In this document: positions 22,701 through 25,700 of the stretch, one piece after another | Layout: every line of letters begins with the position of its first letter | How positions within the stretch are numbered: the stretch's first letter is position 1 | Assembly (NCBI GenBank): GCA_031370785.1 | Contig: JANMQY010000059.1 | Location: forward strand, 1 to 44,887 | Direction of reading: 5' to 3' | Length of the DNA stretch: 44,887 nt | Origin: Candidatus Eiseniibacteriota bacterium | GTDB taxonomy: Bacteria; Eisenbacteria; RBG-16-71-46 | Program-made: the position numbers

Positions 22701-25700
22701 CAGACCGACTTCGAGGAAGAGGCGATGGGCCCCGCGACCCGCGTGGCGTTCGATGCGGACGGCAAGCCCACCCGCGCGCTGATCGGATTCTGCCAGGGGA
22801 AGGGCGCGGACCCCTCGGCGGTGCGGAAGGTCCAGACTGCGAAAGGCGAATACGTCGCGGTCACGGTCAAGCACGTCGGCAAGCCAGCGGGCGAGGTGCT
22901 GCCGGCGCTGCTCGCGACTCTCGCGACCCGGCTCAACTTCCCCAAGACCATGCGCTGGCTCGACGACGACACCCGCTTCGCGCGCCCGGTGCGCTGGCTG
23001 ACCGCGCTGCTCGACGATCAGGTGCTGAAGGTCGCCGCGTTCGGGCTGGTCGCGGACCGCGCGACCTTCGGGCATCGCTTCCTTTCGCCAGCCGCGGTCC
23101 CGCTCAAGCACGCGAAGGACTACGCCGGCTCACTCGAGAAGGCGAAGGTGGTGGCCGACCATCGCCTGCGCGCGGCCAGGCTGACCGAGCAGGTGCACGC
23201 GCTCGCCGCCAAAGCCGGAGGCACGCTGGTCGCCGACGAGGAGCTGGTGGAGATCAACAACTTCCTCACCGAATGGCCGACCGCGTTCTCGGGATCGTTC
23301 GATCCGAGCTACCTCGATCTTCCGCGCGAGGTGATCGTGACCGCGCTGCGCGAGCACCAGCGCTTCTTCGCGGTCGAGGATGCCAGGGGCCTGCGCCCGG
23401 CCTTCATCGCCGCCCGAAATGGCGATGCGCGCGGTCTCGATCTGGTGCGTAAGGGCAATCAGGACGTGCTGGTCGCGCGCCTCGAGGATGCGCGCTTCTA
23501 CTGGGCGACCGACCTCAAGAAGACTCCGGCCGACATGGTCGATGCGCTCGCGGGCGTGGTGTGGATGGAAGGGCTCGGCACGCTGCGCGACAGGGCGGCC
23601 AGGCTCGAAGCGCTGGCGGCGTGGCTCGCGGAGCGGCTTGCACCCGCGGCAACCGATGCGGCACGGCGCGCCGCGCTGCTGTGCAAGACCGATCTGCTCT
23701 CCGAGATGATCGGGAGCGGGAAGGAATACGCGAGCCTGGAGGGTGTGATGGGCGGGCACTACGCGAGGCGTGCCGGCGAGAGCGAGGCGGTCGCCGCCGC
23801 GATCGCGGAACACTATCGTCCGCGCGGGCCGGCCGACGCGCTGCCCTCGACCGATGCGGGCGCGGTGCTCGCGATCGCGGACCGGCTCGATCACGTCGCG
23901 GGCGCATTCGTGGCCGGCAAAGTGCCGAGCGGAAGCGAAGACCCGTACGGGGTGCGCCGGGCCGGGAACGGCGTGGTGCGGATCGCGATCGAGCAGAAGC
24001 GCCGCCTCGACCTGCGCGACGCCGCGATGGAGAGCACCCGGCCGTTCTATGCCGCCGATCCGGACCTGCCGCAGGCCGAGATCATGAAGAAGCTCGGCGA
24101 GTTCTGGCGCGGGCGCGTCGAACAGGCGCTGGACGAGCGTGGCGTGCCGTACGACGGCCGTGACGCCGCGATCGAAGCGCGCGCATCCGTCGCGGGCAAG
24201 GCGCGTCCGGGCTGGATCGATCCGTGGGACTGCCTCGAGCGCGCGCGGGCGCTGGAAGCATTCCGGCGCGACGAGCGTTTCCAGCCGCTCGCAATCCTGT
24301 TCAAGCGCGTCTCCAACATTCTCGCGAAGAATACCGAGCCACTGCCGCCGTCACTCGATCGCACGCGCCTTACCGAGCAGGTCGAGCGTGAGCTGGCCGA
24401 GGCGCTCGATCGCGCGCGCGCCGCGACCGAGCCGCTGTGGGAGAAGCGCGAGTACGCGAAGATCCTGCCCGCGCTGCTCGAGATGAAGCACGCCATCCAT
24501 GCGTTCTTCGACGGGGTGATGGTGAATGCCGAAGACGCCACGGTACGTTTGAACCGGCTGCGGCTGTTGAGCGAGGTGCGCGAGCTGTTCCTGAGGGGCT
24601 GGGATCTTTCCAGGGTCGTGGTCGAAGGCGAGAAGACGTGATCTCGCCGGCGCGGCAGGGATGACATGAATCGCACGCATTCGACGCGCGCTCTTGCGCT
24701 CGCGCTCGCCGCGCTCGCGCTCGGCACCGTCGCCGCCGGCGCTCAGCAGCTCCTGCTTCCTGCGAAGGAGCACGGATTCCCGCAGATCCAGTTCGCGGAC
24801 TCGCTGATCAGCCCCAACAATCGCTGCCCGGTCATGGGCCATCGCCTGAGTATCCAGGTGCGCCCGGTGTACGTGAACGGGGTGCCGATCGGATTCTGTT
24901 GAGCGGGATGTCCGCGGGCCTTCGGCGGAGGCCCCGAGCGCTACTTGAAGCCTCTGCACATCGAGGTGCTCGACTTCCTCCGTCCCTCGCGCCCCGCGGT
25001 GCTCGACTCGACGCGCCGGACCTGGGTCGGACTCGACGCGTTCTTCTTCGCCGACCGCGCCTCGCTGGAGAAGTTCCGGCGCGCGCCGCTGCGCTACGTG
25101 AAGAAGCTCTCCGACCCGATAACGCTCGAGCGCTTCCATCCCACGCCGCAGTCACCGCGCGTGACATTCAAGGGCCGCCCCTACTACTTCGTCTCGCAGG
25201 ATACGTGGAAGAAGTTTCAGGCCTACCCCGACAGCTTTTCCCAGCGCCACGGGATGTGACGGGCTACTGCGAGAGGCCGAGAGCGCGCACGCGCTCCGTC
25301 ATCTCCTCGCGCTCGGCCGGGTCCACCTCGCCCCCGGAATAGGTGTCCCACTCCGCGCGCGCTTCACCCATGCGCCCCAGTCGCGCGAGAGCTTCCGCCC
25401 TCAGCCCGCGCAGCATCGCCAGCGTCGGCTGTTCGGCCAGCGCGGAATCGAGGTAGCTCAGCGCACGATCCGGATGGCGGCTCTCCAGCTCGACGAGGCC
25501 CATCGTGCGCAGCAGGCGCGGCTCGTTGGGGAAGTGGGTCAGCCCGCGCTGCGCCGCGACCCGCGCCTGGTCGGTGCGGCGCGCCTTCACCAGCGCGGTG
25601 GCCAGCGCGATGTAGGGATCCGGGAACGAGGTCGAGTCGATGCCGATGCTGGTCTCGAGATGTGAGATCGCGCTCGGGTAGGCGCCCGCATGCAGGTTGC

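Follow-up and report, generated by a model that had tools for sequence, protein, structure and literature searches.

The window, a stretch of 44,887 nucleotides of the Candidatus Eiseniibacteriota contig JANMQY010000059.1, carries a 197-codon frame downstream of glyS that is interrupted by a single in-frame TGA (Table 1). Translation from the ATG at 24666 places this sole internal TGA at residue 79, within the motif F-C-U-A-G-C, and ends at a second TGA; glyS also terminates in TGA (24639–24641). Under translation table 11 the frame is split into a 78-aa ORF (24666–24902) and a 104-aa ORF (24945–25259), and the translation confirms the proposal of an earlier note that the two corresponding gene calls are parts of one gene. 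The residues named in that note are likewise found where it put them, with C54 at 24825–24827, C78 at 24897–24899, U79, A80 and G81 following, and C82 at 24909–24911.

Table 1. Features of the putative selenoprotein gene (positions in the window)
Feature	Position	Strand	Basis or remark
Whole selenoprotein gene	24666..25259	+	197 codons, one Sec codon, then terminal TGA stop
Predicted Sec-type signal peptide (aa 1–26)	24666..24743	+	Inferred from sequence
Module 1 (aa 44–96), Cys/Sec-bearing, YHS/TRASH-like	24795..24953	+	Pfam YHS E 0.037 alone
U79, TGA predicted to be recoded as selenocysteine	24900..24902	+	Column is TGA or Cys in homologues
Probable SECIS hairpin	24913..24936	+	5′ arm 24913–24923, loop GGC 24924–24926, 3′ arm 24927–24936
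Module 2 (aa 102–149), cysteine-less YHS-like repeat	24969..25112	+	Pfam YHS E 0.13 alone
Module 3 (aa 150–197), cysteine-less YHS domain	25113..25256	+	Pfam YHS E 0.0035 alone
Terminal TGA, ordinary stop	25257..25259	+	No SECIS-like context

In terms of conservation, 206 genomes of the phylum contain 83 homologues, each with either TGA (57) or Cys (26) in one identical alignment column. Each of the 57 TGA-bearing sequences contains exactly one TGA, always in the column of residue 79, which bears out the earlier assumption, drawn from match spans, that relatives have their TGA at this very codon; the count of only three Sec forms given at that time was far too low. All 30 of a further set of homologues from outside the phylum carry the TGA, and a wider scan, seeded with an 8-row alignment, returned 81 homologues, 67 with TGA and 14 with Cys. 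Conservation of the protein runs in frame on both sides of the TGA, the full-length Cys homologues are single ORFs, and the family contains about ten independent Sec-to-Cys replacements. Public gene calls include many fragments of the gene, both N-terminal pieces that stop at residue 78 and C-terminal pieces of 104–130 aa. Four public runs from two studies have contigs that cover the locus, and among the differences listed for them none falls on the internal TGA, with 18 further differences lying outside those listed and the best-matching run possibly being the source sample. One variant contig differs by 13 other letters over 151 nt and still has the TGA. No RNA data covering the locus are listed among the public runs.

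The RNA downstream of the UGA can form a hairpin that starts 13 nt after it, with a UGA-to-loop spacing of 20 nt, six to seven family-conserved pairs and 10 pairs in the window sequence. In the family reading the loop comprises 5 nt (24923–24927) and opens with C-G-[U/G]; its second position is G in all 57 Sec forms, followed by U (40) or G (17). A 25-nt piece of the window sequence folds at −15.8 kcal/mol. These features lie within the loop, stem and spacing limits of the consensus bSECIS model (loop of 3–9 nt with G in its two opening positions and then U or G, stem of 4–16 bp, UGA-to-loop distance of 16–37 nt; PMC13188914). The energy limit of that model (−7.5 kcal/mol) is reached by 41 of the 57 Sec forms, the remaining 16 being weaker, when the 25-nt piece alone is folded.

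The hairpin, which the earlier note had left unmodelled, is supported by covariation. All 57 Sec forms have the six core pairs, and just 5 of the 26 Cys forms reach at least six of the seven. Across 56 distinct Sec rows, 93.6% of the cells of the family helix (columns 17–23 with 29–35) are paired, a level reached by none of 500 shuffles and compared with 23–60% for slid controls, and in 25 cells both partners of the pair have changed (G-C to A-U, U-A to C-G, C-G to U-A). In the control set of 25 Cys rows, 58.9% of cells are paired, with zero double changes and nothing above shuffles, so that the hairpin is present in the Sec forms and is not kept as a conserved helix in the Cys forms. Where the stem has its 3′ base, Sec forms use the codons CAA (27), GAA (14), AAA (13), AAG (2) or GGA (1), and Cys forms use CAG in 9 cases and CAA in none; codons ending in A are rare in the window, two neighbouring genes having 24 CAG and no CAA. 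Searching positions 24000–26000 in Rfam with E values up to 10 produced six matches at chance level, none of them to a SECIS family. Rfam is not known to include a general bacterial SECIS model that should match, and this blank is therefore uninformative. Folds of 101 nt and 51 nt around the TGA did not stand out from shuffles (z −0.8 and −1.05); in DNA of 68% G+C single-sequence energy does not discriminate, whereas the comparative test did.

The machinery for selenocysteine insertion listed in the earlier note was confirmed by profile matches in the same genome, namely a tRNA-Sec (C73:99654–99751, 69.1 bits, anticodon tca), SelA (542 bits), SelB (348 bits, cut by a contig end and covering positions 2–351 of 581) and SelD (354.7 bits), which has a TGA of its own. 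Of the 206 genomes of the phylum, 181 encode SelA at a score above the cut-off, and SelA occurs in 51 of the 55 with the TGA form; being nearly universal, it cannot separate genomes with the Sec form from those with the Cys form.

With TGA and Cys in one column of the 83 phylum homologues and both forms again in the wider scan, a downstream hairpin that fits the bSECIS model, and all four components of the machinery encoded, UGA codon 79 is almost certainly recoded as selenocysteine in a real selenoprotein gene, and the hairpin, with the same confidence, is its bacterial SECIS element. It would recruit SelB carrying Sec-tRNA(Sec) at codon 79, and the second TGA, at 25257 and without a hairpin context, would terminate the protein. 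That the internal TGA is instead a true stop, through a pseudogene, an assembly error or the presence of two genes (one for an exported peptide of 78 aa, the other for a YHS protein of 104 aa), would account for the two ORFs under table 11, for the many such fragments among public gene calls and for the uninformative silence of Rfam; it is very improbable in view of the retention of the TGA in most homologues inside the phylum and all 30 outside it with conservation continuing in frame, the uninterrupted Cys forms, the covarying hairpin confined to TGA-bearing forms, and the recurrence of the TGA in contigs of four runs. Decoding of the TGA without selenium, as one of the standard amino acids Cys, Trp or Gly, by a suppressor or variant tRNA or a changed code, could draw on the Cys found at this position in 26 homologues and on the variant tRNAs that read UGA as Cys in some bacteria. 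It is more improbable still, given that the complete Sec system is encoded and that the hairpin 3′ of the TGA has a SelB-type loop. A changed genetic code was rejected, because TGA closes both the selenoprotein gene and glyS and the code of this genome is thus unchanged.

The N-terminus reads like a signal peptide, as had been suggested before, with basic residues R3 and R8, the hydrophobic stretch ALALALAALALGTVAA and A-G-A before Q27. An equivalent of the A-x-A-Q end of this hydrophobic leader is found in most homologues, and in the structure model the leader is a low-confidence helix (residues 8–19, pLDDT 55–61). The protein is probably exported, and removal of the signal peptide would leave a mature selenoprotein of ~170 residues. 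The leader has neither a twin-arginine motif nor a lipobox Cys. Prefolded Fe-S proteins are generally exported by the Tat pathway; the lack of a twin-arginine motif argues against an exported protein of this kind, and a reading of the site as an Fe-S cluster was set aside on that basis.

The mature protein would consist of three small YHS-type modules, with thiol and selenol residues in the first alone. The whole protein matches Pfam YHS (PF04945) with E 1.1e-8 and 35.3 bits, above the gathering score of 30.3, a sum over three weak stretches of which the best is residues 166–193, in agreement with the E value of 1e-8 and the stretch reported before. The same profile is matched by 27 of the 28 members of a 28-row family alignment. 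Module 1 follows the pattern A-D-S-L-x-S-x-N-x-x-C54 ... G-F-C78-U79-x-x-C82-P, and when searched alone its F-C-U-A-G-C region falls on YHS profile positions 26–45. Residues ~50–100 also align to the repeated C-P-V...F-C-C-x-x-C modules of other proteins, which themselves match YHS and the TRASH families PF24273, PF08394 and zf-FCS. The alignment and the module profiles support the earlier placement of Sec next to the first Cys of a C-x3-C knuckle in an N-terminal YHS/TRASH-like module. N51, C54 and C78 are invariant among the homologues and C82 is nearly so, a few members lacking it (U-S-S-H in L065, C-C-A-S-S in P0006). Position 79 is occupied by Ser or Arg in a few homologues (FCSPMC, FCRASC, FCSVRC), so this residue is dispensable for the fold. 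Module 2 corresponds to YHS profile positions 25–45, with a strand-strand-helix at 118–139 in the model, and module 3 contains the motif D-P-[VI]...G-R-P-Y-Y-F.

The structure model is confident overall (pLDDT 89.3, pTM 0.81). Foldseek, run with the whole model on the PDB, returned no match at E ≤ 0.001, its best rows being C-terminal parts of methane/toluene monooxygenase hydroxylases, ribosomal L24e and adenylate kinase 9, and a wide VIA-align comparison of the whole model gave a best Z of 2.8. In a profile search of solved structures, only cysteine-less YHS-like repeats in two ciliary proteins were matched.

The family to which the protein belongs is widespread among soil and sediment bacteria and occurs in Candidatus Eisenbacteria and, by the names of database records, also in Krumholzibacteria, Latescibacteria, Acidobacteriota, Zixibacteria and Gemmatimonadota. 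The flanking ORFs, 72 at 30 phylum loci and 80 at 30 loci from elsewhere, revealed no conserved partner gene. glyS lies upstream at 9 of the 30 Eisenbacteria loci examined; other neighbours include rpe, ribA, mnmG-rsmG, an MBL-NUDIX protein and beta-helix proteins, with TonB_C or TonB-dependent receptor genes at a few loci only and a thioredoxin-like NHL protein at two (L026, L040). A short, truncated paralogue retains the Sec knuckle alone, as F-T-U or, more generally, F-[TS]-U: C54 and C78 are gone, C82 is mostly gone, and a single distant Cys (W/Y-C-G) remains beside the Sec. Its lack of C54 and C78 suggests that Sec can work without a four-ligand site and points to a Sec-centred chemistry, either a two-coordinate Se/S site or a selenylsulfide, of a kind that appears not to have been described for YHS proteins.

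As to function, the likeliest reading, which we judge about as probable as its negation, is that of an exported YHS selenoprotein whose Cys3-Sec site would hold a soft metal ion, e.g., Cu(I) or Zn(II), outside the cytoplasm, so that the protein would serve as a periplasmic metal carrier, buffer or sensor. One knuckle would supply C54 and the other C78-U79-x-x-C82; the first knuckle of the classical TRASH site has two Cys, here there is one, and the Cys or Sec at position 79 would be the fourth ligand. Sec would be a ligand of low pKa, resistant to lasting oxidation within an oxidising compartment, and the two cysteine-less modules would form a scaffold or a partner-binding surface. Several observations weigh against such a site. 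The neighbourhood offers no metal clue, C78 and U79 are adjacent and two adjacent residues are rarely both ligands of one ion, a few members lack C82, no Pfam TRASH profile is matched, the short paralogue keeps its Sec without most of the Cys, and U79-x-x-C82 corresponds as well to the redox motif that selenoproteins most often carry. In favour of the metal site are the YHS score above gathering, the kinship of module 1 with the C-P-V...F-C-C-x-x-C modules of TRASH/YHS type, the invariance of C54 and C78, and the "CU" motifs of predicted metal-binding selenoproteins (PMC13188914, Table 1).

The main rival keeps the same recoding and makes Sec a redox centre, with U79-x-x-C82 or the vicinal C78-U79 pair cycling between selenol/thiol and selenylsulfide; a periplasmic substrate would be reduced or exchanged, and the zinc-ribbon-like module would be a mere scaffold. 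Sec is costly and usually kept at catalytic sites, and a vicinal Cys-Sec redox pair is known in animal thioredoxin reductase. The Sec and one distant Cys of the short paralogue fit a resolving-Cys pair better than a four-ligand site, and the thioredoxin-like NHL neighbour at two loci points the same way. In the published catalogue U-x-x-C is moreover the commonest Sec motif, and most of the families listed there are regarded as redox proteins (PMC13188914, Table 1). The fold family, however, is YHS/TRASH and not thioredoxin-like, C54 of the other knuckle is as invariant as C78, as expected of a shared three- or four-ligand site, and no redox partner gene is conserved at the loci examined; we give the redox centre a clear minority chance. 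Returning to the metal site, we propose tentatively, and at somewhat below even confidence, a widespread uncatalogued family in which selenium would directly ligate a soft metal in an extracytoplasmic TRASH-type site, as a selenium-based periplasmic metal carrier or sensor.

Gene callers cut the gene in two in most genomes in which it occurs, and the result is systematic mis-annotation of a conserved exported protein found in several little-known phyla from soil and sediment. The protein would be a further case of Sec in a Cys-rich metal-type knuckle outside the cytoplasm. The independent Sec-to-Cys replacements are natural controls, through which the benefit of selenium in a metal or redox site is directly testable by comparing Sec and Cys forms. 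Novelty is bounded, the recoding being classical rather than a new principle and a different YHS selenoprotein being already known.

That other family was described in 2007 as the "YHS domain protein" selenoproteins of Olavius algarvensis symbionts (PMC1976440); it is modelled as NCBIfam NF041384, "YHS domain-containing (seleno)protein", and is listed with the motif GxU in Table 1 of PMC13188914, a review that the earlier note itself cited, so that the earlier claim to a first Sec-bearing TRASH/YHS protein does not hold. Nor is NCBIfam entirely silent, as had been stated: NF041384 matches the window protein at 13 bits and E 0.091 (12.2 bits in the search of its own genome), far below the cut-off of 70, and only through the cysteine-less C-terminal module. 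Within the phylum, 14 of the 206 genomes contain true members of NF041384 that pass the cut-off, all without a stop; these members are single domains of ~110 residues with G-Y-C-P-V-A-Y ... Y-L-F-x-N-A-D-A-K-K-M-F ... G-W-C-A. The two families share selenocysteine, a YHS-type domain, homologues with Cys and a bacterial SECIS, and the phylum members of NF041384 that were examined also have hydrophobic leaders. They differ in Sec site and in architecture, since the NF041384 members of the phylum are single domains with Cys only in G-x-C contexts, none of which aligns with F-C-U-x-x-C, and the Sec of the window protein does not lie at the conserved G-x-C/U site; the Sec sites were compared through Cys-form members of the phylum and the published GxU motif rather than Sec-bearing members. 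Table 1 of the 2026 catalogue of 119 prokaryotic selenoprotein families has no C-U-x-x-C YHS entry (PMC13188914), and the family is absent from that current catalogue. The idea of a new selenoprotein family thus stands for a second one in the YHS superfamily, with another architecture and Sec position, and falls as regards being the first.

Other selenoprotein models are more distant. NF041197, the dual CXXC motif small (seleno)protein OS_HP3 (cut-off 40 bits), did not match the window protein at E up to 10 and is above its cut-off in 0 of 206 phylum genomes; distant multi-module relatives pass it (P0089 at 49.2 bits, P0106 at 42.1 bits). The "CU" motif recurs in predicted metal- or organometal-binding selenoproteins (PMC13188914, Table 1): in MbdU (NF045648), SaoC (NF040734), SaoL (NF040728) and HgcA (NF040863), and in a CopZ-family 2Fe-2S protein (form 2; PMC13188914), Sec directly follows Cys and a metal or organometal is expected, as proposed here. 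The folds of these proteins are unrelated, none being YHS/TRASH, and none of them was matched by the window protein in NCBIfam.

Another close comparison is with the YHS (PF04945) and TRASH (PF08394, PF24273, zf-FCS PF06467) metal-binding modules. The window protein has no match to a TRASH profile (PF08394, PF24273) at E up to 10, and one of the 28 family members matches PF24273. The TRASH pattern of Ettema et al. (2003) reportedly reads C-x2-C ... C-x3-C; the second element is present here as C78 and C82, and the first knuckle has one Cys instead of C-x2-C. In its working the protein may nonetheless be TRASH-like. It resembles YHS and TRASH modules in module size (~45 residues), in a C-P-V start and in the F-C-x-x-x-C-x-x-x-F...P-x-x-Y knuckle, and it differs from them in the Cys or Sec directly after the first Cys of C-x3-C and in having two of its three modules without any Cys.

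Translation of the frame with table 11 returns two ORFs of 78 and 104 amino acids, the same pair as in the split gene call, which the earlier note had read as a single interrupted frame; that reading holds, and the one interruption is an internal TGA. The gene follows glyS at a spacing of 24 nt, and since glyS itself ends in TGA, this codon is an ordinary stop in the genome. The order glyS–selenoprotein–kinase, in which the kinase is convergent with the selenoprotein gene, is retained in the five nearest loci (L009, L012–L015).

Features of the selenoprotein locus (window positions unless marked aa)
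Feature	Position	Strand	Details
Selenoprotein gene	24666-25259	+	197 codons, ATG 24666 to TGA 25257-25259
Internal TGA (residue 79)	24900-24902	+	sole interruption of the frame, from translation
Hairpin after the TGA	24913-24936	+	-15.8 kcal/mol
Signal-peptide-like hydrophobic leader	aa 1-26		ends A-G-A ahead of Q27, read from translation
Ser/Thr protein kinase, C-terminal TPR repeats	25264-26961	-	convergent

The mature protein contains the conserved stretch A-D-S-L-I-S-P-N-N-R-C54-P-V and the Sec site G-F-C78-U79-A-G-C82-P, followed by two further segments that are both cysteine-free. Pfam YHS matches the whole protein with an E value of 1.1e-8 and a score of 35.3 bits, above the gathering score of 30.3, and its strongest stretch is at residues 166-193. 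Scanned singly, the three segments each match YHS weakly (E = 0.037, 0.13, and 0.0035, in order), with F-C-U-A-G-C of the first falling on profile positions 26-45, and the protein is therefore described as three YHS-type modules; judged from its sequence, Cys and Sec are confined to the first.

The phylum search covered all 206 genomes and gave 83 long matches (E ≤ 2.4e-23), 57 with exactly one TGA and 26 without. When all 83 were translated with TGA as U and aligned, the TGA fell in the identical column in 57/57, bearing out by alignment the earlier note's claim that the relatives share the codon, and Cys occupies that column in the remaining 26, one of which derives from a genome flagged unpublished (G073) and bears on no later result. 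The local motif [FY]-C-[U/C]-x-x-C is kept nearly throughout. One genome (G166) holds a Sec form and a Cys form on separate contigs, and three loci (L025, L030, and L035; G068:C7, G071:C324, and G067:C264) are Cys-form paralogues in tandem pairs, followed by a TonB-dependent receptor on the opposite strand.

A wider scan of bacteria and archaea, with one genome per species, yielded 81 homologues at 80 loci, with TGA at the Sec column in 67 and Cys in 14. Fifty-one are identical to phylum-set genes, whose records are mostly titled Candidatus Eisenbacteria; the other 30 all have TGA and belong, by record title, to Krumholzibacteria (8), Acidobacteriota and relatives (7), Latescibacteria (3), Gemmatimonadota (2), Zixibacteria (1), and Eisenbacteria (1), with 8 unlabeled. 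The family is widespread and systematically mis-annotated. Seven loci (L104, L113, L119, L127, L158, L160, and L169) are titled as other groups (Saccharimonadaceae, Udaeobacter, Hyphomicrobiales, Limnocylindrales, Latescibacterota, Dormiibacterota, Acidobacteriota), yet genome search places their contigs in the window's phylum, and the title-based taxonomy of these MAGs looks unreliable.

A SECIS element, which the earlier note had left unmodeled, is found as a covarying hairpin behind the TGA of the Sec forms. Numbering from the T of TGA as 1, pairs 18-23 with 29-34 are formed in 57/57 Sec forms and pair 17-35 in 31/57, whereas only 5/26 Cys forms have at least six of the seven pairs. In the Sec-form alignment (57 sequences, 56 distinct rows), 93.6% of cells are in standard pairs, and two-sided changes occur in 25 cells at three pairs (G-C/A-U at 19-33, U-A/C-G at 20-32, and C-G/U-A at 21-31). 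In 500 column shuffles, the observed pairing, double-change count, and covariation score are never reached, while the same helix imposed on 25 Cys forms is 58.9% paired with 0 double changes and is equaled in 468/500 shuffles, both tests being inflated by the relatedness of the sequences. Sliding the 3′ arm by 1–3 columns lowers pairing to 23–60%; the contrast between Sec and Cys forms and these slid controls are a stronger argument for the helix than the shuffles.

The helix is written into the codons of the gene. Codons 19-21 and 31-33 covary in Sec forms as GTC/GAC (38), ATC/GGT (7), ACC/GGT (5), and ATC/GAT (4), with one instance each of GCC/GGC, GCT/AGC, and GTT/AAC. Codon 28-30 ends in A in 55/57 Sec forms (CAA 27, GAA 14, AAA 13, GGA 1), against 9 CAG and 0 CAA in Cys forms; two neighboring genes in the window (67.8% G+C) use CAA 0 times versus CAG 24 and AAA 4 times versus AAG 34. 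Other compensated stems, such as GGCC.../...GGCC, GACC.../...GGUC, and GGCUUU.../...AAAGCC, occur in the 30 homologues beyond the phylum set. The bacterial SECIS consensus, as worded in the SECIS description of PMC13188914, has a loop of 3–9 nt, a UGA-to-loop distance of 16–37 nt, and an energy limit of -7.5 kcal/mol. The family hairpin fits it, with a spacing of 20 nt and loops of C-G-U-G-C, C-G-U-G-A, or C-G-G-U-G, in which position 2 is G in 57/57 and the next is U (40) or G (17); folded as a 25-nt piece, 41/57 lie at or below the energy limit and 16/57 above it.

The genome encodes the machinery for Sec: a tRNA-Sec (C73:99654-99751, 69.1 bits, anticodon tca), SelA (542 bits), SelB (348 bits, the match being cut by a contig end), and SelD (354.7 bits), which has its own in-frame TGA and adjoins the tRNA-Sec gene (C73:99654-100812). 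SelA exceeds its cut-off in 181/206 phylum genomes and in 51/55 genomes with a TGA form, a distribution that is consistent with Sec decoding and not discriminating, as SelA is nearly universal in the phylum; the four SelA-negative genomes are 56–85% complete, one of them, G198, deduced from its absence in both lists. Four public DNA runs, from two studies, have contigs over the site; one of these runs may be the source sample of the genome. No difference is listed at the internal TGA, with 18 differences undisplayed, and this holds also for a variant contig that departs at 13 other letters in 151 nt, one of them a synonymous T>C in codon 78 (Cys) at 24899. The observation of one frame with a single in-frame TGA is confirmed, and with its well-supported SECIS this is almost certainly a genuine selenoprotein gene.

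A FastTree phylogeny of the 83 phylum homologues (mature region, LG+gamma) was midpoint-rooted without an outgroup. It requires no fewer than 10 switches between U and C, compared with a mean of 22.3 and a minimum of 17 for 500 shuffles of the labels; Fitch parsimony places U at the root, and the Cys forms are small clades nested within Sec clades. On this midpoint root, Sec is the probable ancestral state, with repeated later replacement by Cys.

About 60 short matches in the phylum search are open frames of 120–122 amino acids that match query residues about 90–195. They are not small YHS genes: in 6/6 fetched (L198–L203; G156:C55, G133:C3, G101:C272, G134:C32, G160:C46, and G090:C5), the frame extends upstream across a TGA as far as a signal peptide. 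Behind that signal peptide the full frame has F-[TS]-U-[AS]-x-x-x-[VC]-P-S-x-P-V, then two YHS repeats devoid of cysteine and a single Cys in W/Y-C-G, and a hairpin after the TGA is seen by eye only. The short paralogue is a predicted second exported selenoprotein of the phylum, in which the F-x-U core of the window family is kept and C54 and C78 are lacking.

The AlphaFold model (28-row alignment) is confident, with a mean pLDDT of 89.3 and a pTM of 0.81; in it, three strand-strand-helix units follow a leader helix of low confidence. All matches from searches by fold were weak: the YHS-like C-terminal parts of monooxygenase hydroxylases, YHS-like repeats of ciliary proteins, and ribosomal L24e. 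Residues 50-100 align to repeat modules of other exported proteins (C-P-V-x-G ... [YL]-[FC]-C-C-x-x-C-x-x-x-F...P-x-x-Y), which are strong YHS matches and hit the TRASH families PF24273 and PF08394 and zf-FCS as well. N51, C54, and C78 never vary in the family and C82 seldom does; at position 79, Ser or Arg replaces Cys/Sec in a few members.

The reading we favor, at about an even chance, is that C54, C78, U79, and C82 form a soft-metal site. The first knuckle of a classical TRASH domain supplies a second Cys, for which residue 79 would stand in. As a twin-arginine motif is lacking, the protein would be exported unfolded and would acquire a simple ion once outside the cytoplasm. The chief alternative, which we consider possible and somewhat less probable, is a redox centre formed by U-x-x-C or by the vicinal C-U pair. 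The metal reading is weakened by the absence of C82 from a few members, by gene neighborhoods that gave no functional clue in or beyond the phylum, and by the short paralogue, which keeps F-x-U without C54 and C78. The biochemical role is most likely either metal binding or redox chemistry.

The earlier note had also proposed the first Sec-bearing TRASH/YHS protein, and in this strong form the claim fails: PMC1976440 reported a "YHS domain protein" family in 2007 (five selenoproteins and two Cys homologues), which recurs in the GOS study (PMC2398784) and in a 2022 review (PMC9312934) and, in Table 1 of a 2026 review (PMC13188914), is NF041384 with the motif GxU. The window protein is not a member of NF041384: its score of 13 bits, due to the last module only, lies below the cut-off of 70. 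It also falls short of NF041197 ("dual CXXC" selenoprotein). Exported all-Cys proteins with 3–6 repeats of the C-P-V...F-C-C-x-x-C module pass the cut-offs of NF041197 (P0089 and P0106) and NF041384 (P0047), so these models partly cover the same TRASH-type module. In two genomes (G124:C49:20614-22454 and G095:C50:5888-7742), an NF041384-like YHS ORF with a sub-cut-off score (55.8 and 50 bits) lies directly 3′ of selA on the same strand, 165–195 nt away, a possible link between YHS proteins and the handling of selenium.

Full-text literature, excluding subscription journals and supplements, does not describe the family under YHS, TRASH domain, or Eisenbacteria with selenoprotein or selenocysteine, and has no match for TRASH domain or Eisenbacteria with selenocysteine. 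Table 1 of PMC13188914 comprises 119 families or subfamilies and counts differing Sec positions as separate subfamilies; YHS is entered once and C-U-x-x-C not at all. NF041384 is above cut-off in 14/206 phylum genomes, with a stop in none; the Cys residues of these members (G-Y-C-P-V-A-Y ... Y-L-F-x-N-A-D-A-K-K-M-F ... G-W-C-A) stand in G-x-C contexts, and no Cys occupies the place of F-C-U-x-x-C in the window family. Measured against that table, the window family is a new family, or a new subfamily by the criterion of PMC13188914, among YHS selenoproteins that were themselves already known.
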